Position numbers and translations under genes: made by a program
Origin: Tubiluchus corallicola
Taxonomy: Eukaryota; Animalia; Priapulida
Length of the DNA: 64,000 nucleotides
Direction of reading: 5' to 3'
Assembly: GCA_030141605.1 (NCBI GenBank)
Contig: JAQGDQ010000514.1
Location: 62,001 to 126,000, forward strand
In this document: positions 23,302-63,133 of the stretch, in pieces
Numbering within the stretch: position 1 is the stretch's first letter
Layout: each line of letters starts with the position of its first letter
Notes under the pieces: generated by a model
Database searches by the model: none
The model's input: the letters and a program-made list of their open reading frames with translations, nothing else
Told to the model about the DNA's origin: nothing

Positions 23302-24122
23302 CTAAAAATGTACGTGACAAAAACAAAATTTTACAGAAACACAGCTAAGGCAAAACTTATTTTCTAAAAAATGTACATGGGTGGTTTATAACCTTTTGCT
23401 AGGAGGATACAAATACCACAAGTAACAGTACAGTTATCTTTGCATCAAAGTATTGCTGGAACAATAAAGAATCTATCATGTCCTCACAATTTAGTGTGGA
23501 AGCTTCTCGTTTCAAACACGCCCTCCAAACTTGAGCCTATGATCGATGCAGTGGCACGAAAACTCTGGGATTAATTTTTTGTGAACAAAGCTGAATTGCA
23601 TGGCAATTTACAGCATTTCAAACCCAAAAAACACATTTGAACCATCTTCAAAGTTAGAGGGGATACTAAGATGATATAAAAGAGACATTGATCAATACTC
23701 AACCGACAAGCTCGGCAGATATCTGCAAGATGTGTTGGAGGATCTCTTAGTCCTTCAAGTCGCTGCTCCAGTCACATCCTTCAAGACTGCAGGTCATTTG
23801 TTTCAGCAGAACTTTGATGCAACAAATTGTAATGTAATATTACTTGTTGTTTTTGTACCTCCCTAACAAACAGGTTAGGTACCACTCTATATTTTAACCA
23901 GAACAGTTATGCCTTTAGCAATACGTAACTCGTTATGCTTCGTTCCAGTTACGTATTGCTCAGTGCGAATATACTGTAGAAGCAAATCCCTCTACAGTTC
24001 TGCAATGAATAATTAAGTCTAGTTTTCCAATGTGTCGCCTTTGTCTATAGATTTAGTAGGACGATCATTTGGGTCACTAAGCACTGAAATTGGCTATTTA
24101 AACAATGCTGCTCCATTATTTA

Positions 24123-24708
24123 GTTACTATTTGAGCCACGTACACGTCTTTCTTTAGATATTTGGCAATAGTTTCACGAAAGTTACATTCATTACAATGG
24201 AGAACGGTGGGATGATGACAGCCATATTAGTAAGTGTAATATACAGTTACTATTTGAGCCACGTACACGTCTTTCTTTAGATATTTGGCAATAGTTTCAC
24301 GAAAGTTACATTCATTACAATGGAGAACGGTGGGATGATGACAGCCATATTAGTAAGTGTAATATACAGTTACTATTTGAGCCACGTACACGTCTTTCTT
24401 TAGATATTTGGCAATAGTTTCATGAAAGTTACAACAATGGAGAACGGTGGGATGATGACAGCCATATTAGTAAGTGTAATATACAGTTACTATTTGAGCC
24501 ACGTACACGTCTTTCTTTAGATATTTGGCAATAGTTTCATGAAAGTTACAACAATGGAGAACGGTGGGATGATGACAGCCATATTAGTAAGTGTAATATA
24601 CAGTTACTATTTGAGCAACGTACACGTCTTTCTTTAGATATTTGGCAATAGTTTCATGAAAGTTACAACAATGGAGAACGGTGGGATGATGACAGCCATA
24701 TTAGTAAG
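24123..24708 (+). repeat. Tandem array of the 123/117-bp unit, 5 copies
   Basis: Unit GTTACTATTTGAGCCACGTACACGTCTTTCTTTAG...GCCATATTAGTAAGTGTAATATACA starts at 24123, 24246, 24369, 24486, 24603. Confidence 0.95.
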
Positions 24709-25281
24709 TATTTTCCGCTAGTTTGATGTGACCTCAGATTTAAGACCACCATTACCAAAGCTTATTTTAATTTCCACATAATAATCATAATAGTTGTACT
24801 CTTGATTTATGAGCACAATTAGCAAAGCTCATTTTAATTTCCGCATAATAACCATTAATATATTTATTTGTAAAAAAAACACTACGTAATTGGGACGTAA
24901 TAACGAGATTAGGTGAGAGCATTAGGGCGAGAAAAAAATCCCTTCTAATTGTAATTTAAGAAGAGTTGTTTCCGCGAATGAAAAAGACCATACGTGTTCG
25001 TTCGTTTGCTCAGTGGCACCACAGTGGACGCTCCGAAATTTGGGGTAAGTGTAATTTTATTCTTTAGCGTGTTTTTAGTTTTATAATGACACTTTATTGC
25101 TTTTTCAATAGCAAAGCAATAGACTTTAATTACATCATAATTCGTGTAAGTGAAATTCTTCTTTGCAATAACGTGTGCACACGAGAATTCCATGCTATAA
25201 CGTTTGAATAGCGTTAATTATTTTCTTACAGAATACAGCTTTATAAGAATCAACAAACACCGCTATATCGTCTTAATCATC

Positions 25282-25477
25282 ATGGACCCAGAACGCATTT
25301 TCAGGTGCCAGGTGGTAGTGAGAAAATTACGCATTGTCACCTGCGATATATGCGGGCGGGTCTGTCGTAGTATGAGAGCTATGCAGAGACACGTCACGAT
25401 CGATCATTATGGCCACGAAAGAAACTTTCTTTGCCACGTGTGTGGTCATACGGTCATGACGCAATACGGTCTACGCT
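25282..25477 (+). pseudogene. Truncated C2H2 zinc-finger ORF fused to a viral G fragment
   Basis: CDICGRVCRSMRAMQRHVTIDH and CHVCGHTV; longer copies at 36115 and 45378. Upstream intron-like GTAAGT(25045)...TTTTCTTACAG(25231). Confidence 0.75.
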
Positions 25478-26367
25478 ATAAAACTACTGAAAACTTTTGG
25501 GGGACGAAACAAAACGCCCGAAGTAGCTGGACAGAAACTCCAACTGAGTTGACTTATACAGAGTGCAAAAATCTAAAATGGCCTAACAAGGATTTCAGTT
25601 TTCAATATCATTGGTGTGGCTCGGCAGACTATACTACATATTGATGTTATTTTAAAACTGGGTTCGTTGACATGACTCATGGGGGACTTCCCTTTATCGA
25701 CCTAGGAAATATCGGTCATTGCTTATACACCACCGGACGATGTGCAACACCCGAAAATCTCTGGGTGCAATGGACAGTTAATCCATCAACCCTTAAAGAA
25801 TTTCTTCCAGTTGGTACTATGAATGCTTCCATTTCAAAAGGGATGATTATGATTCCTTCGCTCCAAGAAGCTTATGCCTTTGACCCTTCCGTAAACTTAT
25901 CACTTAATTTAAGAATTAATACAACTTCTGAATTTGCCTTTGACATATTAAAAATATATTCTAAGCCTAATAATCAAAAAATATTTCCCACTGTTGATGC
26001 CTTGGCAAAACGAATTGAATCAGTTCGAAATGAAATTCTTGGTAAAATTCAATACTTGACCGAAAAAATCTCAGGACCAATAACTGAAGTAAATGAAATG
26101 TGTCGACTGTCAAAACTTTCTTCAAATCTAATTCTGTCATTAGCAACATTGAGTCCTTCTTTATACATTAGAAACATCCTTCAAAATCCCTTTCTTATTG
26201 CCCAAATATCTGGAAGTTTTGTATCGTCCATCCCTGTCAAAAGGTTTACGATTATACACTTAATATAGAACAGAAGACCTGTTATCGGGAAATCCCGATT
26301 ACTTACAGGCTCACTGTGGGAGGAACAGACTATACAGGTTACCTTGATCCCAGAACTGACACAATCA
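25478..26367 (+). pseudogene. EVE: Mononegavirales class III (rhabdo/lispi/nyami-type) glycoprotein fragment, variant 1
   Basis: TTENFWGTKQ and QYHW (bipartite fusion-loop-like), HCLYTTGRCAT, LATLSPSLYIRNILQNPFLIAQISGSFV, then after a frameshift PCQKVYDY...TCYREIPITY...GYLDPRTDTI; one internal stop. Confidence 0.7.
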
Positions 26368-26469
26368 GCAAGTTCTTAGACTTTCTAATTCAGAAATGTA
26401 AGTCATCACTAATATTTCATTTCACACAATTTTGCTTCTTGCAAATATTTGTTTCGGCGTCAATTCCTG

Positions 26470-26995
26470 TAATGTCCCAATTGCCCCCGGCAGATCATTC
26501 TATCGATATATATAAAGGGCAAGGACTACTATACACAGGACAAATAGCGGACTACAGGCCCATCTACATGGCCACGGGCGCTCTTCTGGAATGGATGAGC
26601 TCAATGGATTTGGAAAAAAGTATAATGGCCTCTTTGTTTGGCGGCTTGGATGCATGCACAATAGATGTAAGATTTTTGGGGCCATTTCATTGGCAATTAT
26701 TGAATACGTTCACGGTTCACGTGAATTGCGACTGTTTAGGAGCTAATGCACGAATTTTATTGCAGAAATGAGAAAAACTTTTCCAAACAACATTGGAAGT
26801 ATTCAATTCGAACATAGATCACAAAATTCGATTTGCTATTAGAAAAATTTAGGAGGATTTTTTACCACGACACGGGTTGACAAACGAAATAGAGTGTCCA
26901 TTGACGTCGTTAGCCGTGGTAGCAGTGGCCGTGGCAGAACCAGCACCTTTCGAATCGCCGTTCTCGATTCATCTGGGCAGAGGGAATTATGTTTT
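26470..26995 (+). pseudogene. Unassigned disrupted ORF X (second copy 31665-32175)
   Basis: Long reading frame PPADHSIDIYKGQGLLYTGQ...EPAPFESPFSIHLGRGNYV broken by stops; no family recognised. Confidence 0.4.
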
Positions 26996-27140
26996 TTTCT
27001 TTTTCTTGAGAAATGAAATTTTTAAACATTGCGATTGATTATTTAACGGCAACAAATGTGCATTTTAGACTTCTGTGCATTCGTTGCCTAAATGTAGATC
27101 TTTAAATAAAATTCCGCAATGCAATTTAAGAGTGTTGATT

Positions 27141-27175
<35 letters not shown>

Positions 27176-27446
27176 CTCTAAAAAATACTCACGAGCCATT
27201 ATTTTCTTACAGAGTTTGAGTAAATAGAAACAAATGCGAATATACTGTAGAAGCAAATCCCTCTACAGTTCTGCAATGAATAATTAAGTCTAGTTTTCCA
27301 ATGTGTCGCCTTTGTCTATAGACTTAGTAGGACGATCATTTGGGTCACTAAGCACTGAAATTGGCTATTTAAACAATGCTGCTCCATTATTTAGTTACTA
27401 TTTTAACCACGTACACGTCTTTCTTTAGATATTTGGCAATAGTTTC

Positions 27447-28135
27447 ATGAAAGTTACATTCATTACAATGGAGAACGGTGGGATAATGACAGCCATATTA
27501 GAACCGGCACCTTTCGAATCGCCGTTCGTGATTCATCTGGGCAGAGGGAATTATGTTTCAGTAGGCGGCATTTTGCGCACCAAAATTTCAATTAGTAAAA
27601 AACACGTGCAACTTTACCATCGATACCCGAAGTAAGGCTCACATAGTATGAATATGAACAATTATTTTTAAAAAAAGACCGTATCAATTTTATCATTGCT
27701 AAACAAGAAGAACATAGAATGTGGATTTCGCCTAGGGGACGGCAGTCGTGCATGATGGGCAATACCATCTTATCCAACACGCTACAACACCGTGACCTAC
27801 GCGAACTGAAGGTAAGTGGTGCGACCACAATTTTTGACATCCGTCTATCAGTAAAAGCAGCCATCTGGAATGGAATTGTATTCATATATGAATTTAATCC
27901 AGCTAGTGGATTCATCTGTGATGGCTTTCATGCCCATCTTGTGCCATTCGAATTTAAACAACTCATGGGCGACCGAGTCAGAAAATTAACTAGTTCCCCA
28001 TCAACCCGGAAACGCACTAGAGAGGAAAGTTCCCAATCTACCCGGAAATGTACTAGAGAGGAAAGTTCTGCAATGAGATTCAATCGAGAACAATTGGCAG
28101 CCGGATCCCATCAGACAGCACGCAGCTGTCGTTGA
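27447..28135 (+). pseudogene. Unassigned disrupted ORF Y beginning in one 123-bp unit (second copy 32994-33640)
   Basis: MKVTFITMENGGIMTAIL-EPAPFESPFVIHLGRGNYV...MWISPRGRQSCMMG...RKRTREES; shares the EPAPFESPF.IHLGRGNYV segment with ORF X. Confidence 0.4.
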
Positions 28136-28575
28136 CACATCAAGTTTTGCATCTGTTAGCTGCCAACCTCGGATTACGATCATCATTTAAAAAGCTTTTT
28201 CTAATTTTCAACACGATGAGCAAAACTAATCAATTTTCTATGCAAGAAACTTGGCAATGTTGAGATGCACTAACAAGATTAGGCGTCATCATATTCATCA
28301 TTCACCGGAAAAAAGACCTTTTAATTGTAATTTAACTGGGCACATTTGCTAATTTTTTTGAAATAAAAGAGTGGCTCTCATCAATGTCATGCCACACACA
28401 TCCGGTCACTGCTAACAGCAGGAGTACACCTTAAATTTTGAGTAAGTGTAATTTTTATTCTTTGCTGATGCGAATTGAAGTCTGTACACTGTGAATGTGC
28501 GTACACTCACATGGTAATATTTTTTGGATGTTCTTTCTCACATGGTAATATTTGAGCTTATATATATATATATAT

Positions 28576-28906
28576 TGTACTGCAGGGCTGTGATGAGATG
28601 AAGTGTAATACTGGCAGAGGAATACAGCAGAATTCTCAGGTGTGCATGTGAACGTGGCTTTATCTAGCACATAGACTCTTATTCTGACCTTGTGTTATTA
28701 GGAGCCACTAGTCACGTGCACACCTGCGCTTATAAAAAGGGTAGGTCTGCTGTAGATCCTTGTCAGTGGTCGTCTCCTCCCAGCTCGGTTCACATTTCAG
28801 GCTTTGCTCTATTCTATTCTGTTCGGTAAGCTGTTTGGAATAATAAATTGTCATTTTGATTTTATTATTCATTTTGGTTTTGGTTTGGCATTGACTTAGT
28901 TGAGCA
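28576..28906 (+). mobile_element. LTR-like element, copy 1 (probably BEL/Pao)
   Basis: About 330 bp, TGT...CA ends, TATAAAAAGG at 28731, GGTAAG at 28825, AATAAA at 28842; three copies in the window; followed by a gag-like knuckle. Confidence 0.65.
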
Positions 28907-28990
28907 AAATCGTCGTACAGCGTGCTTTAATTGTAAAGGTGTCAATTCACATGCATCAGCAATTTGTCCTCGCAAATATAGTGAGTCTGG
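28907..28990 (+). mobile_element. Gag-like CCHC zinc-knuckle fragment (also 34450-34530)
   Basis: CFHCKGVNSHASAICPRKY in the second copy resembles the last knuckle of BEL/Pao Gag. Confidence 0.5.
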
Positions 28991-29019
28991 TGTGGCAAAT
29001 GTGTATCGTGCAGCTCTTG

Positions 29020-30505
29020 CACTCTCTTTCAATAGAGGTGGGGACAATCACTATCTCTTTTTTCAAGGAATACTATGCAACATTATTAGCAATGTCATAA
29101 TCAATGAATATTATCAACCAAGTGGGAGAAATTATAGTCATTATCATTTTGTAGACTATGATTGTATTATGAAAATCAATGAAGAATTCCTGACAACAAG
29201 CCAAGACTTTGTATCGTCTTATTCCAGAGATGAAGCACAATCCATACACCTTTATTCCAGAGATGAAGCACAATCCATACACCTTTATTCCAGAGATGAA
29301 GCACAATCCATACACCTTTATTCCAGAGATGAAGCACAATCCATACACCTTTATTCCAGATATGAAGCACAATCCATACACCTTTATTCCAGAGATGAAG
29401 CGCAATCCATACACCTTTATTCCAGAGATGAAGCGCAATCCATACACCTTTTTTCCAGAGATGAAGCACAATCCATTCACCTTTATTCCAGAGATGAAGC
29501 ACAATCCATACACTTTTATTCCAGAGATGAAGCACAATCCATACACCTTTATTCCAGAGATGAAGCACAGTCCATACACCTTTATAGATAGAAAGAAGGT
29601 GATCATTTCAATAAATCCAATTATGAACATTTTCAGGACTCGACCACCAATAGATGGATTGAATGAGGAGAAATTAAATGCAATTGCTTCAGTGAGAGTT
29701 GGAATAAATTCAATCCGAGAATCATCAGAAATCTATGAGATGCAAGAAGAATTGATGGAAGACTCTAAGGGAGGAGAAACGTACTCGAGTTTCTTACCAC
29801 CAAATCCTTTTGGAATTCTTCTCGGAGGAGCCCTTCAAATAATTGGATGGGCAACAATCAAGGAATTAAGACAGGCGAATCCTTCACTTGCTCACTTAGA
29901 GAAAAATATAATAGAAGTTCTCTTAACCAACACACGAGTCATTGGACATGCGTTCCATAAGTTGTTTGTACACTCAAACATAAGGAGAGAAATATACTCA
30001 TGTTTTGAAGTAGCAAATCCTCCCAAATCAACCCCTTTCAAAAGAAGCGAAACTCAAACAACACTGGTTTCCTATATGAGATTTCTGTTTTCTGAGTTAT
30101 TGAAAGGAAATGTTCCCAACTACTTAACAACAGAAATTCAATTGATTTTCAAGTCATTATCAGTTTCTGTAGAAAGTGAGATTGTAAAACATCCTAGAGT
30201 TTGGAAAAATGAATTATCTGTTCATCCACTATTTGGAAGGAACCAGAGAAAATTGGGAGAAAGCAATCATTGTTTGTGATGCTGAATATTCATTGTCAAA
30301 GGATGAAGTGAAAGATATGTTTGCAATTCAAGAAAACTTAATAAAGTTAGCATATTGGACTCAAGGATCTATTTTGGTGAAGTTTTACTTCAATTCACAA
30401 GAGTTACTTGATAGTTATATGGGAAGATTATTAACATGTTTTCAAAGAGTATCAGTCTTAACATCTATATTCTCCCCTTATAATTCAACAGAATTTTTTT
30501 CTTTT
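29020..30505 (+). pseudogene. EVE: Mononegavirales L protein fragment (end of capping domain and connector)
   Basis: RGGDNHYLFFQG...HYHFVDYDCIMKINEE...NPYTF matches the G..NY...FQ...HYH....CI..I.E...NP pattern of L proteins; frameshifted. Confidence 0.65.
29221..29583 (+). repeat. 33-bp tandem repeat x11 (IPEMKHNPYTF) inside the L fragment
   Basis: Unit ATTCCAGAGATGAAGCACAATCCATACACCTTT. Confidence 0.97.
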
Positions 30506-30509
30506 TTGT

Positions 30510-30859
30510 GAACATCCAACTGATTTAACCTATGCAGAATGTGAAAATTTGAAATGGCCAAACAAGGATTTTAGTTGCCAATATCATTGGCGTGGTACAG
30601 GAGATGATACCACCTACTCTTGTTATTTTAAAACTGGATTTGTTGATATGACTTATGGAGGAGTTCCATTTAGTGACCTTGGAAACATTGGTCATTGTCT
30701 CTACACAACTGGGAAATGTGCTACTCCAGAAAACCTCCTCGTAGAATGGATTGTCAATCCATCAACTCAAAAAGAATATTTACCAGCTGGAATTATGAAT
30801 GCCTCCATCTCAAAGGGTATGATTATGATCCCTTCTATCCAAGAAGCATAAGCATTTGA
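30510..30859 (+). pseudogene. EVE: class III glycoprotein fragment, variant 2
   Basis: LKWPNKDFSCQYHWRGTGDDTTYSCYFKTGFVDMTYGGVPFSDLGNIGHCLYTTGKCATPEN; aligns to 25540-25880 with many third-position differences. Confidence 0.7.
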
Positions 30860-32571
30860 GCGTACATGTCCTGCTGTATAGTAGTCCTTGTATTATCCCT
30901 ATACAGCGGTATAGGGATGGCACTGTTAAATGAGTCACCTCAAGCCACAGCAACAGCTTGGAATGTGGCATGAAATAGATTGGGAAGTAGACAAATTCAC
31001 AAACCTACAACTTTGTACAACAGTTTTCTCCAGGAACATTTCTAAATGCACAATGAGTCAGACAGCCTGAATGCACCATGACTAGTTTGTGGTGCCAGTG
31101 GTGCAGACCGCTAAGATCTCATCTAATTAGGTAAATTCTTTAAGAAATTATTAAAAATCTGAAGTCTGTTATAGGTCAAGTTGTGTGAGTCTGATTCATT
31201 GGACTGTAAGTGTGTGCAGTTAAAATTTTTGTAATCTGTTTTACATTGACACTTTGGCATAATGTTAAAGCTACTAGAACAGCTACTATAAAAAATTAAG
31301 GCAATGCTTTGGCGAAAAACTATAGTAACTTAAGCAGAGTTTTAATGTTTGACTCTCTCTCTGTGTGTGTGTGCACTTAAAATAAATTTCTTTAGTCTGT
31401 TTTACACTGACACTTTCACTTAATGCTTAAGCTATTATCACTTAACCGTGAAAAATTAAGCCAATTCTCTGGTAAAAAACTATAGTAACTTTAGCAGAGT
31501 TTTAATGTTTGACTATATCATGCTGTTTAAATGATCAGTATTCATTATTTTCCTACAGAATTTGACTGAATTTAAATTGCAAGTGAAAAGACTTCTTTCA
31601 TTTACAATTCCGTGGGAAAACATTTCGCTGCAGCAAGATGATGCGATAATTATGATAATGATGAGCCCCCGGCAGATCATTCTATCGATATATATAAAGG
31701 GCAAGGACTACTATACACAGGACAAATAGCGGACTACAGGCCCATCTACATGGCCACGGGCGCTCTTCTGGAATGGATGAGCTCAATGGATTTGGAAAAA
31801 AGTATAATGGCCTCTTTGTTTGGCGGCTTGGATGCATGCACAATAGATGAAAGATTTTTGGGGCCATATCATTGGCAATTATTGAATACGTTCACGGTTC
31901 ACGTGAATTGTGACTACCTGGGTTCTAACGCTCGAATGTTATTGCAGAAATGAGAAAAAATTTTCCAAACAACATTGGAAGTATTCAATTCGAACATAGA
32001 TCACAAAATTCGATTTGCTATTAGAAAAATGGAGGAGGAATTTTTACCACGACACGGGTTGACAAACAAAATAGAGTGTCCATTGACGTCGTCAGCCATG
32101 CTAGCGGCGGCAGTGGCAGAACCGGCACCTTTCGAATCGCCGTTCTCGATTCATCTGGGCAGAGGGAATTATGTTTTTTTCTTTTTCTTTTTCTTGAGAA
32201 ATAAAATTTTTAAACATTGCCATTGATTATTTAACGGCAACAAAAGTGCATTTTAGACTTCTGCACACTCGTTGTCTAGATGTAGATCTTTCAATAAAAT
32301 TCCGCTAATGCAATTTAAGAGTGTTGATTTATATATATATATATATATATGACTCTAATAAAATACTCACGAGCCATTATTTTCTTACAGAGTTTGAGTA
32401 AATAGAAACAAATGCGAATATACTGTAGAAGCAAATCCCTCTACAGTTCTGCAATGAATAATTAAGTCCAGTTTTCCAATGTGTCGCCTTTGTCTATAGA
32501 CTTAGTAGAACGATCATTTGGGTCACTAAGCACTGAAATTGGCTATTTAAACAATGCTGCTCCACTATTTA

Positions 32572-33048
32572 GTTACTATTTGAGCCACGTGCACGTCTTT
32601 CTTTAGATATTTGGCAATAGTTTCATGAAAGTTACATTCATTACAATGGAGAACGGTGGGATGATGACAGCCATATTAGTAAGTGTAATATACAGTTACT
32701 ATTTGAGCCACGTACACATCTTTCTTTAGATATTTGGCAATACTTTCATTAAAGTTACATTCATTACAATGGAGAATGGTGGGATGATGACAGCCATATT
32801 AGTAAGTGTAATATACAGTTACTATTTGAGCCACGTACACATCTTTCTTTAGATATTTGGCAATACTTTCATTAAAGTTACATTCATTACAATGGAGAAC
32901 GGTGGGATGATGACAGCCATATTAGTAAGTATAATATACAGTTACTATTTGAGCCACGTACACATCTTTCTTTAGATATTTGGCAATAGTTTCATGAAAG
33001 TTACATTCATTACAATGGAGAACGGTGGGATAATGACAGCCATATTAG
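32572..33048 (+). repeat. Tandem array of the 123-bp unit, 4 copies
   Basis: Units start at 32572, 32695, 32818, 32941. Confidence 0.95.
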
Positions 33049-34061
33049 AACCGGCACCTTTCGAATCGCCGTTCGTGATTCATCTGGGCAGAGGGAATTA
33101 TGTTTCAGTAGGCGGCATTTTGCGCACCAAAATTTCAATTAGTAAAAAACACGTGCAACTTTACCATCGATACCCGAAGTAAGGCTCAATGAATATGAAC
33201 AATTATTTTTAAAAAAAGACCGTATCAATTTTATCATTGCCAAACAAGAAGAACATAGAATGTGGATTTCGCCTAGGGGAGGGCAGTCGTGCATGATGGG
33301 CAGTACCATCTTATCCAACACTCTACAACACTGAGACCTAAGCGACCTCGAGGTACGTGGTGCGACCACAATTTTTGACATCCGTCTATCAGTAAAAGCA
33401 GCCATCTGGAATGGAATTGTATTCATATATGAATTTAATCCAGCTAGTGGATTCATCTGTGATGGCTTTCATGCCCATCTTGTGCCATTCGAATTTAAAC
33501 TACTCATGGGCGACCGAGTCAGGAAATTAATTAGTTCCCCATCAACCCGGAAACGCACTAGAGAGGAAAGTTCTGCAATGAGATTCAATCGAGAACAATT
33601 GGCAGCCGGATCCCATCAGACAGCACGCATCTGTCGTCGACACATCAAGTTTTGCATCTGTTAGCTGCCAACCTCGGATTATGATCATCATTTAAAAAGC
33701 TTTTTCTAATTTTCAAGAGGATGAGCAAAACTAATCAATTTTCTATGCAAGAAACTTGGCAATGTTGAGACGCACTAACAAGATTAGGCGTCATCATATT
33801 CATCATTCACCGGAAAAAAGCCCTTTTAATTGTAATTTAACTGGGCACATTTGCTAATTTTTTTCAAATAAAAGAGTGGCTCTCATCAATGTCATGCCAC
33901 ACACATCCGGTCACTGCTAACAGCAGGAGTACACCTTAAATTTTGAGTAAGTGTAATTTTTATTCTTTGCTGATGCGAATTGAAGTCTGTACACTGTGAA
34001 TGTGCGTACACTCACATGGTAATATTTTTTGGATGTTCTTTCTCACATGGTAATATTTGAG

Positions 34062-34118
<57 letters not shown>

Positions 34119-34121
<3 letters not shown>

Positions 34122-34449
34122 ACTGCAGGGCTGTGATGAGATGAAGTGTAATACTGGCAGGGGAATACAGCAGAATTCTCAGGTGTGCATGTGAACGTGG
34201 CTTTATCTAGCACATAGACTCTTATTCTGACCTTGTGTTATTAGGAGCCACTAGTCACATGCACACCTGCGCTTATAAAAAGGGTAGGTCTGCTGTAGAT
34301 CCTTGTCAGTGGTCCTCTCCTCCCAGCTCGGTTCACATTTCAGGCTTTGCTCTATTCTATTCTGTTCGGTAAGCTGTTTGGAATAATAAATTGTCATTTT
34401 GATTTTATTATTCATTTTGGTTTTGGTTTGGCATTGACTTAGTTCAGCA
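34119..34449 (+). mobile_element. LTR-like element, copy 2
   Basis: Near-identical to 28576-28906; preceded by a long (TA)n. Confidence 0.65.
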
Positions 34450-34564
34450 AAATCGTCGTACAGTGTGCTTTCATTGTAAAGGTGTCAATTCACATGCATC
34501 AGCAATTTGTCCTCGCAAATATAGTGAGTCTGGTGTGGCAAATGTGTATCGTGCAGCTCTTGCA

Positions 34565-38600: not shown

Positions 38601-38773
38601 GGACGTATTAAAGGAAACGTTTCATTGCCAACCATGCATAATTGTTGCCATGCCAACCATGCATAAACGACTGCATAAACATAACATAAACATATACATA
38701 AACATAGAACTCCATACACAAAGACGCCTACAAAATATTGAATAGTATAGAATATAGGAACAATTAAACGAAC

Positions 38774-41410: not shown

Positions 41411-41548
41411 AGCTAATAATTTTTAACATCCGGTTAACCACTTCCGCTATTTCATTCGTGAGAAAAAACACGGCAAGCGAACGTGTTCCTCCGGCGAAAA
41501 AGCAAAAAACTGGAACTGGACGTCATTTAAAAGAATGGGAGAGCCAAA

Positions 41549-52248: not shown

Positions 52249-52310
52249 CTACTCTTTAGAACATGGAACAATTCAGCTTGCTAGTCATATCCCCATTAAT
52301 CGCTTCACTT

Positions 52311-52340
52311 TTTATCTTGTAAAAAAATGAAGTCAAAATG
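52311..52340 (+). promoter_or_regulatory. Mononegavirales gene-end/gene-start junction (F to L)
   Basis: TTTATCTTGT-A7 (52321-52327), one T, then GAAGTCAAA-ATG. The same GAAGTCAAA-ATG precedes F at 54013-54024. Confidence 0.75.
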
Positions 52341-53132
52341 ACTTATGAGAGACACCTCAACTCACCTCTCAGCCTGGAATTTGAGAATGCTTTTATATTT
52401 GATATACATCACAAAACTCCAACAGAAGTAGCCAAAATTTGGGCTCTTGGACCTCCAGGAAAATGTCAATATCTGGATTACTTGAAAAAAGTTTCTCAGG
52501 AAATCAAGATCAGCCCTCCAGAACCTCTAGCGAGTTACCAGCACTCTAGGATGATGGAGAACTGCAATTCCTTTTTTTGGAAAAGAAAGAAGTCACCCAC
52601 TGAAGGAGAAGCCACCGACCAATCCAGGAGAGAACCTCCACAGAAGGAGGAATATGAAATCAAAGAGATTAAACTTGGGGACATGGCAAAACCCGCTACA
52701 GAGCTACAACATGCTGAGGAAACAATTGCGAGATATGCCAAGAGCTATCTGGCCGGCAAATATGAACATATTCCTCCACGACTTAGCATTGATATCAGTC
52801 TACTTCAAAGAAGACTGCTGCTAGAAAAGATCAGCAGCATTTTTGCCAACTCATCTGTAGCCAACAACAATCCGATTTTAATCAAAATTAATTCGAATCA
52901 TGTCTTCCACTTGTTGGGCCATTCTCTATTTGAACACCGCCGTGATAGTATAATTGTAACACATGTCAGTCATTTCACGGGGGGACTAGATGCAGCAATT
53001 TCTCGACTTACTGTCAAAATCTTACATGCTCTGCTAGATCAAGAAGATCAATCAGAGAAGCGCAATGTTATAGAAGAGTTCATAGAACTCATTCATAAGC
53101 ATATACTTGTTCCCATAAATCTCAGAAAATAA
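52338..53132 (+). pseudogene. EVE: Mononegavirales L polymerase N-terminus
   Basis: Starts MTYERHLNSPL (cf. conserved L N-terminal HL[D/N]SP[I/L]); directly downstream of F and the junction; 264-aa open frame. Confidence 0.72.
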
Positions 53133-53524
53133 AGCGGAGGCAAAGCGGTAACAAAAAATTCATCGTTCGTTTTTTTCAGTTCCTCGAGGCAGAGAAAAGT
53201 TTAAGTTTGTTATTTCATGTTTATTAAGTCCAAAGATTGTTCAGTAGCATCACTATCTAGTATTACATAAACTCTCTATCGCACTGCGAGTGTCATTTCC
53301 ACCGACATTATTTCCCATTCTGACGTTGTTTTTGGAAAGATTTCTTCAAGTATTGCTGTTGCAACTAGTAAATAATCAATAGACTGCAAACGAGTTGTGT
53401 GCGCCTCGCTGAATGAAGTAAGCGTCTTGCTGTTCATCCTTTAAAAAATCTACTCAAATTTATGTGTAGGCCTGGGGACAAGCGGTATGAATGTTGTAAG
53501 AATGATGTGTAAAAGTAATAATAT

Positions 53525-53861
53525 TGTTCTGCAGGGCTGTGATGAGATAGTGTAATACTGGCAGGGGAATACAGCAGACTGCTCAGGTGTGCGTGTGAAC
53601 GTGACTTTATCTAGCACATAGACTCTTATTCTGACCTTGTGTTAGTAGGAGCCACTAGTCACGTGCACACCTGAGCTTATAAAAAGGGTAGGTCTGCTGT
53701 AGATCCTTGTCAGTGGTCGTCTCATCTCAGCTCTGTTCACATTTCAGGCTTTGCTCTGTTCTATTCTGTTCGGTAAGCTATTTGGAATATTTTATAATAA
53801 ATTGTCATTTTGATTTTATTATTCATTGTGGTTTTGGTTTGGCATTGACTTAGTTGAGACA
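53525..53861 (+). mobile_element. LTR-like element, copy 3
   Basis: TGTTCTGCAGGGC...TTGAGACA with TATA, GGTAAG and AATAAA; more diverged from copies 1 and 2. Confidence 0.65.
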
Positions 53862-54021
53862 TGCCGCACGGTGTAGGCCGCGGTGCCATCCGTCCTGCCT
53901 CCGTTAAAAGCGGACAGCAGCCCAATATTTTAAGAAAGTTTTGTTTGCAGCAGAAATGTTATAGAAACTTTTTATTGTTTTTATACCTATCTATTGTCTT
54001 TTTTATATACAGGAAGTCAAA

Positions 54022-54838
54022 ATGGCTTATTATACCTTCTTAGTTATGCTTGCTCTCTCTACTTCCATTCATGGAACTATTGTAAGTGTGAACAGTATCA
54101 TCCCTCAACTGTCTCAGGAGGCGATTTACAAGCACCAAGACGTTTTAGCGTCATATGGGATTATCATCACTGATCCCAAGCCCATTGGGTATCAAGTATC
54201 CCAATCTTACAAGATAATAAGAGTAGAAATGTCCAAAGCATGGAACATTCACTACCAGCTCTTCAATGATCCAGAAAATGACTACCCCTCCAAGGCCAAC
54301 CATCGAGATAAAAGATTCCTAGGAATGATTGTAGCCGGTGCTGCGATGGCAGAAGCCACTGCAGCCTTAGCATTGGGGGCAACCAACAGGGCCGAAATTA
54401 ATGCCCTCAACAGGAAAATGAGTGAGTTAAAAAACAACCAAGATATGATGAACCACGAGCTGACTGTAGTAAATAAGGAAGTTGGCATTTTAGGACATGA
54501 CCTGGAAGAATTGGAACGACTTGTTGGTAATGTTGACCATAACGTCCACAAGCTTATGCAGGCCCATGCAAAAGATATGACTCAGCTCCATGAATATCTA
54601 AATTCAGTTAGGTATGGACATGGATTGAGATCTATAACATCGTCTAAGATAGATTCACTCCTCATAAGCCCGACTCAATTTAATCTTCTCATGTCTAATC
54701 CCAACTGCAGTGTCCCTTTGTCCTATGGTGCAAGCAGAGCAATAGTAATCAAATCAGAACCGGAGAGGTTGTGGATGTTGGTTAATGTGAGAGAGATCAT
54801 TCAATCACCAAGCAGAGTGCATGTCAAAACCAAAAATG
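54022..54838 (+). pseudogene. EVE: F protein N-terminal half, copy C, retaining the viral gene-start
   Basis: ORF 54022-54915; 54018-55931 duplicates 41546-43458. Confidence 0.85.
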
Positions 54839-55330
54839 TTTTGTGGTGGAGCATACGCTGGATGGGTGAAAGCCTCGTCAGAAGGCTCCGACTACTCGTT
54901 TTGTGTTCCATGTAGGAAAAATGTGAAAGTGCGAGCGTCCGGGTTTTACGACCTGAAGAGCCATTTCTCATCAACACGTGGACACAAGGAAAGTGTGGCG
55001 AAAACTAAAACTTTTCGGTCGATGGATGATCATTTCAAACCAGCGAAGGAACCTGTTGTTAGCTCTAATGCCACAGCTGCAGAAATTTTATTTTGTCAGT
55101 TTGTGGCCGAACACAACTTGCCACCTTCCATTGCTGACCATTTCAGTTCCAGTTTTTTTGTTCCAATTATTTTTTGTTGTTGTGTGGACTGATATGCGAT
55201 CTCCTGACTGGTCTGTTTCTGTTGGCTCCCAGCAAATTAACACATTTTCAGATTCGGTAAGGTCCCGTGCTGTCTTATAAGGTTTAGCAAGACCCTATAT
55301 AAGGGCAACGCTAATAACAGGTTGACAAGT

Positions 55331-56475
55331 ATGCATTGAACACGACTATCTTAAGAACATAGCTGACACTCAAACTCTTTACCATCATGATAAATTTTCA
55401 AATGTCCTTGATAATTTTGATTTCGTGATCTGTGACTCTATCGATTTTCTCCACCTTCGGGCCATTTCTAGCAACGATTATATTTCGAAGTGTGAAGCAA
55501 AAGTTAAAAATAAAGGCACCTTTTAGTTTAGTATTGGGTTAGAACAAATTAAAAACTTAAATATTTTAAAATTAAATTTACAAACACTACAAATTTCACA
55601 TATCTCCTAACGTTAAAGCAAATCAAGTTTATATTTTCCTCCAATGTTCTGAAAAATTAGATAACAAAGAAGGTTTAGTTGCTTGGTCCGCTTGGTATCA
55701 ATTCATACATTTTGTTGTTCGTTATCGCATGTACGCTGTAGAAAATGCTTTTAAACGTAAAATGAAACAATTGACGTTAGCCCATCCTATTCTTTCTAAA
55801 GTTAAAGATAAGCCTTGCCACTACACAACCTTCTCCCCTACCCTAACGTCAGACCGCTTTGAAACCATGTTTGAATGTAAGCATAACAAGCTCAAAAATA
55901 ACCATCGCCTTAACCGTATCGAAGCAATTTTGAACGATAATAAATTTTAGAAATCTGCTAGCAAACTCCAAAATTTAGAATATCTTAACGTAGAAGACGT
56001 TAAGAAAGGATCCCGATTATGCCCAAGAAAATTAAGTAATCAAATTGTAATAGCAAAATGGAACACCGAAAAATCAAAAGTATCTGATGATTCAGTTTTA
56101 GTAGCCGACTTTTTAGGAAATTTAGTTAAGAAAATTACCGGCGCTGATCCGTTTAACACCCCTGTAGTACAAGTATCTAAAAACGCAACCTTAGTTCATT
56201 CTGCTGTAAGAGACCGCTTAGACCATCCAAATAAGCAATTATCTGACGAACAAATTACTCAACTCTTAGACGCTGCAGAATACGTATGTATGCCTCCATC
56301 CCACCCTATCAAAATTGCAACCTGGGATGAATTAGGACATTTAATCAATAGACAAGGTGCTTCCGGAATGTTAGACGATTGTCAAGATTTAGGAACTCTT
56401 TACGACCGCCCTGGCACTCGCGAAGTTGTAGAACGTATAATTAACGATTTGCAAAAGTTCCAATTTTACCAAGGT
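55331..56475 (+). pseudogene. EVE: pestivirus-like/large-genome flavivirus NS5B RdRp N-terminal region
   Basis: TWDELGHLINRQGASGMLDDCQDLGTLYD...VVERIINDL parallels pestivirus NS5B WEQLEAGINRKGAAGFLE...LVEQLVRDL; upstream frame largely open. Confidence 0.7.
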
Positions 56476-58048
56476 TGACTAAGGGAGACATAGTGATTAG
56501 TCCAAGACTAAAAGTAGGATGGTTTACATATTATGTTGATTGTAGTTACCAGGGTAGAGTTGAGAGAGTAGAAGCAAACGGAATTGTGCGGGTTAAGTTT
56601 CCTACTACAGTACACGGAGACAGTGGGCAACCCATATACATGGAAACAGAAAGAGGAAACGTGTGTGTGGGTTGCATTGCATACAGTAGCAATTTGAATG
56701 GAGACATGGTAGAGGAAACGATAGCAACTGAAACTCACGGAATCTCAACTAAGGTAGAGCAGGGAAAGATACGAATTGTAACATCTTATTGTGGGAGTGG
56801 TAAAACTAGAGAAAAGATTCCATCTTGTTTGAAAAGTAGGTCTATTGGACAGAAAGCATACATACTAGCTCCTGACAGAGTAGTAGCACGTGAGAATTAC
56901 GAATCCTTGAAGAAAGTGCTAAAAGAGAAAATAGCATTGAGGACATCAGATGCTAATCCAGAGGAAAGAAAGATGATATATTTTTTGTTATGCAGTTGTC
57001 ATAATGAATGTTAAGACTTAGATTTAACAGAAATTTGTGGTATTTTAGGGAGGTGCTGCCATCTTTTGGCTGTAAAATTAATTTACCTATTTCTTAAACT
57101 GTTTACTGTACAATCTATTTACATACCATTTACTGGGTTTCAACTAAAGTTAATGAGCTGTAACAGGAGTCCTGGCTATTGTATGTTGGTCAGTAGTAGT
57201 TCAGGTCTCATAGTCTGCTGGTGAATAATGTAATTGGTGAATTTCATAATGTAGTTTGTCAAGGTATGTTGCTTTAAATTATATTTTGTGGTTTTTTTAT
57301 TTTGCTAAACTGAGAGGTTAGTGCTTTAATTTTTGTTATAGTGTGTTAAACTTAAGTGAATTATTAAGCTAAACTTCCCTAAATGTTGCTTTTGCTTTTA
57401 TTTCAGACGGCAATTTATGTTGAAACCTACCCCCCCCCCTCTACACAGGCTTCACTTCTTCATTTTTTTGACAATAAAGAAATCAACCTACCTGTATCAA
57501 AGTGTTCATCATTTTTATTGGATTACAACATGCAGACAGACAAACTGAACAAAACAGCCAGGACCCTGTAAAATCGAGGTAATGGCCCATGCAACAGCCT
57601 TAAATCGATATAGGAAGGAGAAATTGAACTTTAGAAGCTCATTGACCATCATAGATGATGGGCATTATAATAACGAAGAAACCGTGGCATTAGTATCCAT
57701 AGTCATGTACAGTGCAACATCAAAGGACATGATGGCCACAGCCACAAACCAGCCAGTGGAGCGCATGGAGATGAATGAAAGGGAAGTTAAAAACTATGTT
57801 AACGAGCAAGTAGAAGCCAAGATATTGTGGATAGTACCAGGCAACGTGAATAGTAAAGCAAAAGAAGTGAAAGGTTGGTACAAGGACAAAATAATAGTGT
57901 TGGATAAGCACAATATAGAAAACCTGAACCAAGCTAAAAATCTTGCGACAGGCATGGGGATAAGCACCAGCATATGTGAGTGTGGTGCTAACTTAAATCC
58001 TGACATCGTCATTGTACTCAAACTAATTACCCTCCAGTAACAGAAGGT

Positions 58049-58200
58049 ATTGAGACTGGAAGATGGGCAAGGATAAAAAGAGAGGACAGGCTATGCTCCT
58101 GTTCTGGCTTAAACGTACAAACAGAAGAGCATGTTATCTGTTTTTGTCCACTTACGAATCACCTTCGTGAACATAACACTGAACTGAGCTTCAACGAATT
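58049..58200 (+). mobile_element. LINE ORF2 C-terminal CCHC fragment
   Basis: IETGRWARIKREDRLCSCSGLNVQTEEHVICFCP. Confidence 0.75.
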
Positions 58201-59078
58201 TTTTAAGACGAATTTTTTAAGCTTTATTTACGAACAATGTTTTCTTGTGCTTCAAAATATGACATTGCCTAAGTGTACTACAATCAATGTCCGCCATATT
58301 CCAATAAAATATTGTAGCGTTTTATATGTCATTTCTATTGAAAAAAATAAAAAAGCTATTTTACAAATTTGCATTAAATTCTGTAGTTCTAGACCCTACT
58401 AAACACAAACATTAAGTAAACCTAATTTGGTAATTTTACTAATTTATACTATGTAACACATTATTTATACTATGTAACACGTTCTATCAAATTATAAGAT
58501 TGTCATTAAGTAAACTAAATGTTCAAGGTGATCAGTTCAATCAAAATGATACAAAATGATGTATTTACTTACATCGTACGTCTCCATAAAGCAAATCGAG
58601 TATTTACCAATATATCTGACAAATTATCACTATCATACTGTGAAAACTACTATTAAAGAAGCCTGTTAACGTCTGCCAACTAACTCGCTTGCCCAGGTAA
58701 AAACAGATCTGTACAGGTGAGTGATCGTGGTCACGTGACCAACGAGATACTTAGCGAAATTCACTACAGTCATTGATACTCAAACTAATTACACTCCAGT
58801 AACAGAAGGTGATGTAGATGTGATTTTGCAGGAAAGACCCACTAGTAGGGCTAGCCAGGTTCAGAGAATAGGTCGAGGAGGCAGAAGGAAGAAAGCCACT
58901 TATGTAACGATTGGGCCAAGAACTAGACCACAGACGAGATTTTTCCCATCAGATACAGCCATGTGGGATGGCATAGCCATCTTACTGGCTGAAGACACAG
59001 AGGCTACACTACTGCAATATGTATGGTGAGGAAGAATGCACATTGCATAGTGAGCGGAGTTTAGAATTCAAGAGATTA

Positions 59079-59656
59079 CCGTATATACTCGCATATAAGC
59101 CGAATTTAGAACTATAAGATACAATACTGAAATCAGGGGGTCGGCTTATATGCGCATGAAACAAAATGAACACAAGGACAGACACTAATGCCAATTTTCC
59201 AGCCACACATTTTCATCGCTATCTGACTCTTTATTTGGTTGTGTGTCACCAGTGGTGTATTGGAGGGGGATCGTGGGGGATCGCCGTCCATCCACTTTTT
59301 TTTAGAAAAAATATAACAGAAAACTTTTTTATAACAGAAATGTTATAATTTTTTGTGAATAAATAGAAAACAAAATAGTTTCTTCTTTATTCATATCAAA
59401 ATGTATAATTTCTTCTATTTCTTCTAGTATGTAACATAAAAGTAAGCATTTTACATCTTTATAGTAAAAAATTTCTATGAACCAAAAATACCCAATTAAC
59501 AAAATGTGACAAAAAGGGGGTTTGATTGGGTATGGAGTAAAATTAGACAAGTTGATGGTCGGCTTATATACGGGTTTTTGCAAAAACTTGCCATTTTAAA
59601 GCAGTTTTAGGGGGTCGGCTTATATGCGATGTAGGCCTATATGCGAGTATATACGG
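59079..59656. mobile_element. Tc1/pogo-type MITE inserted in the NS3 EVE
   Basis: TIRs CCGTATATACTCGCATATA / TATATGCGAGTATATACGG with TA duplication; removal restores the frame FKRL-GVKHP. Confidence 0.85.
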
Positions 59657-60436
59657 TAGGCGTGAAACACCCAGTGACTGAAGATATGAAAGTGCCATAC
59701 TCAATGGCTGTGTTGTTGAGTGAGAACGGTTTGCCACGGATATCAGACAATGTGCCAAACAGGAAGACGCCAACAGCAATTCTGTAATCAATGTCCAAGA
59801 AAAGGGGTTGCATTCGATTGTAGAATGCATGTGAATAAGCATGCAATGTTGGTGCAGTTGGTGGAATTTGGATTCAATTCTTGGAGTGTGGTGACGATGT
59901 TGGCAATAATAACAATGATATCAAGCACTCTCTATTATAAAATCATAACATCAACTCATGGTTGGCAAAGGACAGTAGACCTTATTAAATGGTTATGGAG
60001 ATATGCTATAGTATTCACGACTTTCTACATGGTCACTATGCACCAGGATTTACTAGCTGGATTGAATTTTGCAGTACTATTAAAGCTTAGTATGAACTTA
60101 TATGACATTATAGTCGAAATACGAGCCGAAAGGAATGTGAAACACTCCTGGTGGGACGCGATGGTTGCAATGATATACACAGGAACCCTGTTAATAGCTT
60201 TGCGAGGGGACCAGTTCATAACTTTTGTAACCCGAAAGATGGGAGTTGAAGGAGTGCAACATGTACGAAATATTGGATGGCGTTATCAGGTAACAGATTA
60301 TTTATCTGTGATACAAAGCCATCTTATTTACGTGGTGCTCGACACATCATCCATAGGAAAGTTATTCGGTTATGTATATTCCACTAAGATTCGAGAGAAA
60401 ACAAATGAAAAGGGCTTTGACGGTCCAACAATCAAG

Positions 60437-61030
60437 GGACGTATTAAAGGAAACATTTCATTGCCAACCATGCATAACCGTTGCCATGCCTACCATGCAA
60501 AAACGACTGTTTACCGTTTCAATACGGTGATATTGAAGAAATTGAAAAATTTTTGAATATCGGCGTAACTTCATGTACTATATCATCTTTAGCTACCGGG
60601 TCTTTACCAAACAATTTTCATCAGCATCACACTGACTCACAGTCACTAGTAAACACTTTAAACTGTCTTCCCTAATCAATGATGGTAATTCGATGAAAAC
60701 CTTTTATTTTTCCATATGAATGCGAGTCGCTTGTACCTTAATTAAAATTTCATCACAACAGATTCTTCCATAATTATTTATTCATTGATATTTTTTTACA
60801 GAGCATGTACCTTGTGAGGAGAGTCCGGAAGGTTTTGACCTCAGCTGGGATTCGACTGAGCAGAACTCAGAAGCAGGTGTTTCTACAGTAACCAGTGAAT
60901 CAGTATCAGTAAGCGAATTCAAGTGGTGTATGGTGAGTACGAACAGCCAACAATGTTTTAGCACTTTGTGCATCTCATTTCTCGAGATGAAAATGTGTTA
61001 GACATTTTTTAATTATCAAATACAGACACA
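60437..61030 (+). repeat. Recurrent non-viral module (split copies at 38601-38673 + 39239-39679 and 47794-47866 + 48432-48872)
   Basis: GGACGTATTAAAGGAAAC...ATCATCTTTAGCTACCGGG...CAAATACAGACA shared by three loci. Confidence 0.85.
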
Positions 61031-61261
61031 TACAAATAATTGGAACTATTAAGAAAAGAAAGTTTATCTATATACCCTGATAAGCCTTCTACTAATGTAC
61101 AACTGAGTTCAATTCCTATAAGTTCATTTTCAAACACCTAGTTATTTGTTACTGTATCAATTTCGTTTGATCAGGTCTGCTTATTCATTACCTTTTTGAC
61201 TTCTGTTAACTATTCAGTTAGCGCATAATAGGCTCTGTCCACCACTTGCATCAACATTGGT

Positions 61262-61620
61262 GGCAACATCGCATCATAGCGGATGGAAGACCTGACATTT
61301 GAAGGAAACACAATTTCTCCTCGCACCTGTCCTGGCAACATCGCATCATAGCGGATGGAAGACCTGACATTTGAAGGAAACACGATTTCTCCTCGCACCT
61401 GTCCTGGCAACATCGCATCATAGCGGATGGAAGACCTGACATTTGAAGGAAACACGATTTCTCCTCGCACCTGTCCTGGCAACATCGCATCATAGCGGAT
61501 GGAAGACCTGACATTTGAAGGAAACACAATTTCTCCTCGCACCTGTCCTGGCAACATCGCATCATAGCGGATGGAAGACCTGACATTTGAAGGAAACACA
61601 ATTTCTCCTCGCACCTGTCC
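61262..61620. repeat. 72-bp tandem repeat x5
   Basis: Unit GGCAACATCGCATCATAGCGGATGGAAGACCTGACATTTGAAGGAAACACAATTTCTCCTCGCACCTGTCCT. Confidence 0.96.
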
Positions 61621-62764
61621 ATCTAAAGCACGAGGGATGTGTCTCACCTTTCTGGCTAGCAGACTGACAGTAACTTTCAGAAACAAAAGTGGGTGTTGAG
61701 TTAGTATATGACTCAGTACCTTGAGTTTCAGCATTTGAAACCCTTGATGCTTTATCCATTTTAGAGCTTTCTTTAGATTTTATGCTACCACTCAGATTAG
61801 CAGTACACTTTTTATTGCTTAGACAATCACTTGCTGATGATTTGGAACTTCTTAATCTTATTAGGTAGCTATGAGGCATTAGCTTACTGTTACATAAGTT
61901 TATTAGCGTCTGTTTACTACAGTTCGCTAGGTTCAGCTCAGCTTCATAAATTGTTTGGCGTGGAAAACTTCGAGGCTTTACACCAATAGTAATGGCGGCT
62001 GGAACTATACTCCAGGTTACGGCATACAGCAGTGTCAAGGCCACAACAAGTGCTGTGCAAGAATACTGCCGACGTAAAATTAAAATGTTCTCACCGTATT
62101 TGTTCTCCAAAAACTTCATAAACTTCACTGCCGAAGATTACTTATATAATTTTGCAGGCATCAAAGGTGAGATATCACGTAAAATAATTGTTTTTATTCA
62201 AGTTTGCTAATTTTGTGTGAGCACCAATACTATCAGCATTATTATTTCCTCTTTCCAATCTGGCCTTCCCTGTTTGAGTCACTTGTCATGTTACAATCTT
62301 AAGCTGATGAGCCTACCTCATGTAAAACTGTTTTAAAAAAGAGATTACTTTTACTAAACCATCGCAGATGATGTGACTTTGAAGAAATGTAAAGAAAAGT
62401 TTTAAACATAAAGAAACACACACGTATATGGTCGTTAGCATTGCTTATATTTTTTACATTCGCAACTGTTTTTGCCAATCGCTCAGTGCAGCATGAAAAT
62501 TGTTTAAAAACATAGGAGAATTTAAAACATTGATGAAGCTTTGTATGGTGAAAATATGTTGTAGTTATCACAATACTTTCTCATTGTTAATAAGATCTTT
62601 CAGATCAATGAGTCGTAATATTTACAGTCAGCTAACTATTGGCTATTCCGCAAATGTTTCTTTTTGCATTTTTGTTCAAATTGATTTTTTTTAAATTTTG
62701 ATTTACTGAAGTAGGCAAACTTGAAAAGCCAAGGCTCCTTGGTCTCACTTAAACCATTCACTTC

Positions 62765-63133
62765 ATGAACTTAATTCGAAAAAATTTAGTGCGTCTCCGA
62801 GATGCTGGATGGGACCAAAAACAGATTGAAAACCTTGAGACAGAATTTCATGGTCTGAAGAGAGACTACAGAGACAATGAACCCACCAAGACTGCATTGG
62901 ATACGATGACAGATGACACACCATTCCTCCAAGCTTGGAAGAACTTCGATCGCTACTCTTCCTTGATGGAATTTTCTGGAGGACGTGCAACTCTCTTTCC
63001 GTCAACAGCCACTGTAGAGGCTGACTTTAGCATTGTTGGGGAAATCAAAGATTGCTATAAGCAGAGCATGACAGACTTCAGCCTGGAGGGGTGCCTCCAA
63101 GCAAAACAGTTTTTTGAACTGATGAAAATGTGA
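62765..63133 (+). mobile_element. hAT-like transposase C-terminal (dimerisation) fragment
   Basis: FSGGRATLFPSTATVEADFSIV...KQSMTDFSLEGCLQAKQF. Confidence 0.75.

Follow-up and report, generated by a model that had tools for sequence, protein, structure and literature searches.

A single-orientation stack of RNA-virus fragments, probably in the first intron of an ACBD6-like gene, has the anatomy of an Aedes piRNA cluster

Whether memory of RNA viruses in the form of PIWI-interacting RNAs (piRNAs) derived from endogenous viral elements (EVEs) exists outside arthropods is an open question. It is posed here by a 64,000-nucleotide stretch of animal DNA (the window: positions 62,001 to 126,000 of contig JAQGDQ010000514.1, forward strand), in which virus and transposon fragments are stacked beside an ACBD6-like gene. 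The original prediction, made from the letters alone, described about 39 kb of fragments from several unrelated RNA viruses, every assignable one sense on the plus strand, as a candidate antiviral locus resembling a piRNA cluster. We find that the stack is real, one-sided, and repeatedly fed, with the anatomy of an Aedes piRNA cluster, although much of its length is recent tandem duplication, and it probably extends past the predicted end at 63,133. A 168-base element common to 31006–31173 and 63451–63618 (89% identity) suggests that the unit structure continues at the right end of the window.

23964 to 64000, plus strand: stack of virus and transposon fragments, delimited by self-alignment and the tally of open reading frames (ORFs), with additional copies indicated by read depth; right end probably open.

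At the level of ORFs, the strand bias of the stack is not due to chance. Over 22,549 non-redundant, tandem-masked bases, 23 ORFs of at least 120 amino acids lie on the plus strand and one on the minus strand; 100 block shuffles of the stack gave means of 0.44 and 0.56, respectively (maxima 2 and 4). The 23.9 kb of host sequence to the left holds a single plus-strand ORF of this length, which is a host exon, and no such ORF on the minus strand. The sole minus-strand ORF of the stack (61565–62137) has no assignment, and no viral family was found on that strand in 27 read-through frames and 150 open segments; a minus-strand match to RVP_2 (E 0.019) was weak and was treated as chance. All duplications listed for the stack are direct, with no inverted duplicates. 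The predicted single orientation is borne out by these counts. By our own interval assignment, tool-supported viral sequence covers 8,798 of the 40,037 stack bases and putative viral sequence 7,455. None of the tool-supported viral genes is intact, all being partial or broken by stops, frameshifts, or insertions, which fits use at the RNA level.

Three virus sources are supported by tools: a large-genome (pesti-like) flavivirid (LGF), an orthoflavi-like virus represented by NS3 and the NS5 methyltransferase (MTase), and a virus with a class I fusion protein (F). The corresponding fragments, and an adjoining set of ORFs that is probably viral, are as follows.

37696 to 38548, plus strand: orthoflavi-like NS5 MTase fragment, split by a 202-bp insert; copy at 46889–47741; assigned by flavivirus MTases in the PDB.
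38783 to 40599, plus strand: cysteine-rich ORF with a signal-peptide-like start, followed by hydrophobic ORFs; no database matches; probably viral.
40600 to 43447, plus strand: LGF fragment (tblastn, P0003 polyprotein residues ~3292–3687), split by a BED-transposase-like piece with an F fragment (41542–42365) inside.
50727 to 53107, plus strand: class I F gene (frameshifted), A-run, start motif, and putative N terminus of the polymerase (L); F from Pfam and Atlas, L label from motifs.
54013 to 56463, plus strand: third, truncated F fragment, transposase piece, and LGF fragment reaching the N terminus of the RNA-dependent RNA polymerase (RdRp; tblastn, P0003 residues 3510–3868).
56463 to 60553, plus strand: orthoflavi-like NS3 protease-helicase and downstream hydrophobic (NS4-like) region; Pfam Flavi_DEAD and PDB.

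A phmmer search with the read-through of 55951–59100 against 1.84 billion representatives returned six proteins, five of which are large polyproteins. The named matches included Semibalanus balanoides associated flavi-like virus (E 5.6e-39), Bemisia tabaci pesti-like virus 1, and Hangzhou ochthera mantis flavivirus 1; two of the matched proteins carry Pfam RdRP_3, and one of these also pestivirus S31. With the best match (P0003) as a tblastn query, collinear segments were recovered at 40600–41187, 42910–43447, 50157–50372, and 55383–56463, all on the plus strand (40% identity, E 4e-66), in agreement with the predicted pesti-like assignment and with a one-sided orientation tally. The same alignment overturned an assignment of 43103–43465 to an L methyltransferase; the region is LGF. 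The Semibalanus virus (UniRef100_A0AAT9JA33) is collinear over residues ~3292–3868, including a methyltransferase-like motif and the RdRp N terminus; at 29–48% identity it is a relative rather than the source virus, and the element in the window is partial and interrupted. The nearest known relatives of the LGF piece stand at 40–48% protein identity, and its cognate virus was not found in the searched databases; our literature search returned no dedicated paper on the Semibalanus virus. Four Logan contigs of ~2.4 kb (the P0002 cluster) encode a 264-residue truncated LGF relative with 45–47% identity, possibly an EVE in another organism.

The NS3 piece matched Pfam Flavi_DEAD above the cut-off (E 6.7e-8, or 1.8e-11 with both pieces joined), and each half of the NS5 MTase matched flavivirus MTase structures with E 0.004 in a PDB sequence search. 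The N-terminal NS3 pieces had no match to the pesti-like protein set, and a word-index protein search with NS3 gave none either; the orthoflavi-like NS3 and NS5 constitute a second flavivirid source beside the pesti-like one. Three repeat insertions break the NS3/NS4-like region, at 57012–57548, at 58052–58776 (a LINE-like 3′ end with a 42-bp direct duplication), and at 59027–59634. A 73-base stretch directly after the MTase piece (38601–38673) recurs at 93% identity at the end of the NS4-like ORF (60437–60509), which hints that both orthoflavi-like pieces come from related captures.

Compared with the LGF and NS3 matches, those of the MTase and F are weaker. For F, Pfam Fusion_gly was matched at E 6e-4, below the cut-off, and the top Atlas matches were Fusion_gly/Negarnaviricota at a score of 0.94, with retroelement env-like clusters ranking there as well. 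A 12-base start motif is common to F and the next ORF (at 52329 and, for the third F copy, at 54013), with an A-run ahead of the second, although only two genes can be compared. A repeated start motif with an A-run is expected for a non-segmented negative-strand virus. Searches with F of a word-index protein set and IMG/VR returned nothing, and the F C terminus gave nothing credible in the PDB. The original prediction had named four lineages; the pesti-like, orthoflavi-like, and class I F assignments stood, whereas a class III glycoprotein (G) and both L labels, one for a capping-to-methyltransferase piece and one for the L N terminus, found no tool confirmation and rest on sequence motifs. 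They are kept as putative labels for the following pieces and for the L N terminus listed above.

25478 to 26372, plus strand: putative glycoprotein fragment G1, with one stop and one frameshift in its ORFs; coding constraint against G2; no database match.
28965 to 30510, plus strand: putative mononegavirus L fragment with a 33-bp array inside (29219–29585); partial copy at 34508–35620.
30515 to 30859, plus strand: second glycoprotein copy, G2, at 78% nucleotide identity to G1.

G had no match in Pfam, PDB, Atlas, IMG/VR, or metagenomes. The best hint for the L fragment was Pfam Methyltrans_Mon_2nd at a weak E of 0.097; PDB sequence searches with L and the L N terminus gave nothing credible, and neither IMG/VR with the former nor metagenomes with the latter gave a match. 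In all, IMG/VR scans with G, L, F, the helicase, and ORF Y matched for none of five queries, and metagenome scans with G and the L N terminus for neither of two. Single-sequence AlphaFold models for L reached pLDDT values of 41.7 and 38.9, too low for use, and yielded no fold match.

The tool-supported viral pieces are non-retroviral EVEs in host DNA, present at genomic copy number and joined to repeats. We compared six sequencing runs, all as assembled contigs. The stretch is present in four of the six, which come from two studies, and the DNA-type runs X1 and X4, from two samples, hold viral pieces. In X1, where host single-copy depth is ~175, the NS3 pieces have depths of 135–195 and the F N terminus 507, that is, approximately three copies, as in the window. 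The F–L piece and the LGF RdRp reach ~360, which points to copies outside the window. One X1 contig bridges LINE-like, NS3, and repeat sequence (58733–59101) with no differences. Elsewhere X1 at full depth differs from the window in several places, so that it is probably another individual, although it may be the source sample. Runs X5 and X6 match the host exons at only ~89–94%, and their lack of coverage of the stack is uninformative. In X4, a contig of 1,448 bases matches the putative L N terminus (52862–53107) with 23 differences over 246 bases and then diverges from the window, indicating a more divergent second copy or a capture elsewhere in that sample.

The position of the stack relative to the neighboring gene bears on the strand that would be transcribed, for which the original prediction had no handle.

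19431 to 23301, minus strand: host ACBD6-like gene (acyl-CoA-binding domain and ankyrin repeats); Pfam ACBP and Ank, exon boundaries.
23302 to 64000, minus strand: presumed intron 1 of the ACBD6-like gene, spanning 40.7 kb or more; exon for ACBP positions 1–32 not found there.

The most upstream exon found (23237–23301) is internal, with an AG acceptor, and covers ACBP profile positions 33–55; the next covers 53–75. No ACBP hit was obtained among 150 non-redundant minus-strand open segments with a suitable donor (drawn from 423 of at least 30 amino acids), nor in the read-through frames beside exon 2 or at the window end, and none of 2,439 minus-strand GT sites provides a fitting exon end for ACBP positions 1–32. 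That this exon was not found in 40.7 kb is most simply read as exon 1 lying beyond the window; the stack then probably lies within intron 1 of the ACBD6-like gene, antisense to the host transcript. It points to antisense transcription of the viral pieces, as a piRNA function requires.

Capture at this locus was repeated. Over 114 codons, G1 and G2 differ at 14, 11, and 51 first, second, and third codon positions, with 42 codons differing only synonymously and 22 changing the amino acid; among genomic duplicates the corresponding counts are 1/1/1, 2/3/4, 0/0/0, and 1/0/0, and in one instance a milder 2/3/7. The third-position bias implies that divergence under coding constraint preceded insertion, and G1 and G2 are two separate captures from related sources. 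Inserts are also nested: an F fragment lies within the transposase-like piece, both joints showing a short sequence match, and this piece lies within the LGF element. The three F copies fit one native insert followed by unequal crossing-over. Both X1 and X4 contain a joint from 54012 to 53107, with the flanks of the F–L insert linked via 12 other letters, which reads as the empty site of that insert. The claim of repeated capture at one locus in one orientation is upheld by the nesting, the two G captures, and this empty site in two samples. We considered 53107–54012 as a complete long terminal repeat (LTR) vector for F–L and rejected it; a later insertion is suggested by the 5 bases duplicated around the LTR-like piece and by a joint from which that piece is missing.

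Self-alignment shows that 26483–29943, 35618–42365, and 41542–43459 recur as direct duplicates at 94–99.7% identity. The repeats and transposon-like pieces that accompany the viral fragments are the following.

24122 to 24709, unstranded: tandem array of 117/123-bp units; with other arrays at 32571–33048 and 43510–44796 it marks duplication units.
24818 to 25477, plus strand: CpG-rich module (observed/expected CpG 1.35) that contains splice-like signals and opens a C2H2 zinc-finger ORF (Pfam zf-C2H2); copies at 35618 and 44905.
26469 to 28132, plus strand: two ORFs (26469–26768 and 27647–28132), duplicated at 31665–33661; no database matches.
28576 to 28964, plus strand: LTR-like element with TG...CA ends and a TATA-like box, fused to a CCHC-knuckle piece; ~600 times single-copy depth in X1; label from sequence motifs.
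62753 to 63130, plus strand: hAT-like transposase C-terminal piece (ORF; label from motifs).

Further LTR-like copies lie at 34119–34447 and 53526–53858, the latter followed by a motif resembling a primer-binding site. The high-copy TG...CA element adjoins the L-like piece via the CCHC knuckle, and its third copy resembles a later insertion. The predicted LTR, gag-like, LINE, and hAT labels, together with the gag-knuckle and BED labels, are presumed from sequence motifs and copy depth (~12–14 copies for the BED-transposase-like piece) and had no Pfam confirmation. In the module copies at 35618 and 44905, the zinc-finger repeat arrays are broken and extend to 37697 and 46890; over 36100–37697 and 45351–46890 these are single-C2H2-finger repeats with poly-Q/poly-D linkers, the last repeat being in frame with the flavivirus-like MTase piece. 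In-frame 33-bp and 72-bp tandem arrays occur in or beside inserts (29219–29585, 34765–35262, and 61261–61620), and the 33-mer is present in 11 copies in one duplicate and 15 in the other, showing that the arrays grew after integration.

On balance, we think it probable that the locus is a repeatedly used insertion site that acts as a uni-strand source of piRNAs, with antisense small RNAs directed at the captured viruses. Viral RNA would be copied into DNA by a retrotransposon reverse transcriptase, as the fusion of one L-like piece to LTR-knuckle sequence suggests, and the copies would enter the locus, often within earlier inserts through microhomology joints of the kind seen in the nested pieces. 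Related viruses were captured more than once, as the codon pattern of G shows, and unequal recombination duplicated blocks, which now differ by 0.3–9%. Judging from the absence of exon 1, host transcription would cross the stack on the minus strand; the resulting RNA could then be processed into piRNAs with a 5′ uridine (1U), and selection may retain antisense inserts. Several observations weigh against this account. No contig among the run records joins exon 2 to the stack, a connection for which the assembly is the only source; exon 1 might be divided among pieces of less than 28 codons, lost, or cut off by an assembly join. Splice-like signals on the plus strand are present within the zinc-finger module and immediately ahead of one of the F copies. 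LTRs make up a small share of the stack, unlike in the LTR-dense loci of Aedes. Tandem duplication inflates the count of captures, so that independent ones are fewer than they appear; by our arithmetic, the chance that the four tool-supported inserts share one strand is 0.125, falling to ~0.0005 if 12 motif-assigned inserts are independent. The NS3 piece, having accepted three later insertions, is old and may not match any living virus.

The same anatomy could arise passively, if a tolerant, expanding intron gathered viral cDNA and transposons with no antiviral role, their orientation being set by template switching with same-sense retroelements, selection against sense intronic inserts, and tandem duplication. 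Intronic retroelements in mammals show an antisense bias, and the large recent direct duplications and the later repeat insertions into viral pieces speak for such a hot-spot. So does the excess of CpG-type transitions, which make up 25 of the 82 in the duplicates (expected share 0.175, p 0.003); this resembles ordinary methylated gene bodies, though silencing would fit as well. AATAAA is not depleted on the minus strand (28 occurrences, against 18 on the plus strand), however, which weakens a filter against premature polyadenylation, and a passive hot-spot leaves unexplained the arrival of multiple unrelated RNA viruses, one of them as two strains, in the same 40 kb while the adjoining 23.9 kb has no standout viral ORF. 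We regard it as rather unlikely, though the likeliest of the alternatives. Transcription from the other strand is improbable. Here the CpG-rich zinc-finger module, which heads three units and has a donor, an acceptor, and an ATG on the plus strand, would drive sense small RNAs against negative-strand genomes or interfering truncated viral proteins; its CpG ratio, the in-frame fusion of the last zinc-finger repeat to the MTase piece, and an acceptor-like sequence abutting the F start at 54013 speak for it. Yet every tool-supported viral ORF is broken, as are the zinc-finger ORFs, splice-donor counts show no plus-strand excess (8 versus 6), and sense RNA would miss the positive-strand flavivirid genomes and any viral mRNA. 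Captured genes, moreover, carry their own signals, which are equally expected if the locus is an antisense piRNA source.

That the stack is an assembly artefact or viral contamination is very improbable. Near-identical blocks (99.7%) can be assembly errors, and no run record spans the whole stretch; against this, viral pieces occur in DNA-type runs of two samples, X1 depth is that of a host single-copy sequence for NS3 and corresponds to three copies for F, repeat–virus joints are bridged by a contig, and the pieces carry stops, frameshifts, and host repeats. Returning to the antisense piRNA source, a fuller claim built on it is possible but more doubtful than the source itself: that an invertebrate outside the arthropods maintains, within the first intron of a housekeeping gene, a heritable antiviral archive open to updating. 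Transcription of the gene would supply the antisense piRNA precursor, and successive strains of the same virus would have been captured there. If so, mosquito-style EVE–piRNA memory would extend to another major animal lineage, and the locus would also preserve, in an invertebrate, traces of a previously unknown negative-strand virus whose class I fusion gene immediately precedes the polymerase gene. The locus makes the question sharply testable: the transcribed strand is predicted to be minus, the driver to be the ACBD6-like gene, and the viral targets are several. Independently of function, it documents strongly divergent viruses that lack a close match in the databases searched, together with repeated capture and nesting at one site.

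In Aedes, unidirectional loci hold EVEs of several families with same-sense transposons and give antisense piRNAs, as outlined by Whitfield et al. (10.1101/127498), and core clusters are described as borrowing host-gene transcription, either as readthrough or as genic clusters (10.1101/2022.08.22.504762); an EVE is reported to limit its cognate virus, cell fusing agent virus (CFAV; PMC7522710). Like those clusters, the stack spans tens of kilobases, interleaves several virus families with transposon pieces in one orientation, has species-specific content, and would borrow host-gene transcription. Unlike them, it belongs to a host that is probably not an insect, apparently occupies a first intron and not the region downstream of a gene, is low in LTR content and high in segmental duplication, and is known from DNA alone. 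Beyond the arthropods, primary piRNAs are reported from a probable rhabdo-like EVE of a whelk and from parvo-like EVEs of a starfish and an anemone, those of the gastropod element being antisense and 1U, and Waldron et al. raised the EVE–piRNA question from such single fragments (PMC6085071). The gastropod element is likewise a non-retroviral RNA-virus EVE of a non-arthropod marine invertebrate with an antisense reading, which for our locus would follow from the intron placement; as described there, it is a single nucleoprotein fragment, recovered in RNA contigs and by PCR and backed by small RNAs (PMC6085071), whereas the stack is a multi-virus locus with genomic context, known at the DNA level. 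Endogenous flavivirid elements are listed for Priapulus, Elysia, Craspedacusta, and Eurytemora (a priapulid, a sea slug, a jellyfish, and a copepod), the copepod element having internal duplications typical of piRNA clusters (PMC9752770). The window adds flavivirid EVEs of an aquatic invertebrate; the tables of that report give pesti-like EVEs from insects only, whereas in the window pesti-like pieces lie directly beside orthoflavi-like ones, and both border negative-strand-like pieces. In a tunicate preprint, class I F is regarded as characteristic of the vertebrate paramyxo- and pneumoviruses (10.1101/2024.12.15.628590), which makes the F–L piece noteworthy. Titles and abstract openings of mainly open-access literature, supplements aside, turned up no multi-virus uni-strand EVE locus described from an invertebrate outside the arthropods.

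The left 23.9 kb of the window is ordinary animal DNA with ~33% GC and CpG-depleted gene bodies, and its other gene was used to place the host.

58 to 10626, plus strand: exons of a host cationic amino acid transporter (SLC7A/CAT), a flanking gene; Pfam AA_permease, homologue search, exon map.

In a CAT tree of four exons and 14 references, six of them invertebrates, with chelicerates and annelids unsampled, the window was placed with the invertebrates (support 100/98). Identity over 192 residues was 74% to a nemertean, 72% to one further record, 70% to a bivalve, 63% to an ostracod, and, lowest among the invertebrates, 57% to a fly; a crinoid reference, in which one exon is missing, reached 76% on the first exon. 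A spliced piece of the ACBD6-like gene was found in run X6 at ~89% identity. Runs X5 and X6 carry the same species label, yet their ACBD6 exons are ~6–11% different, which suggests a cryptic species or a loose label. An interspersed repeat at 12330–12853 has a very high copy number (~2,000 times single-copy depth in X1), and Rfam returned no matches, this repeat included. Between ACBD6 exon 2 and the stack, 23381–23885 is an old inverted-repeat element (76% over 88 bases).

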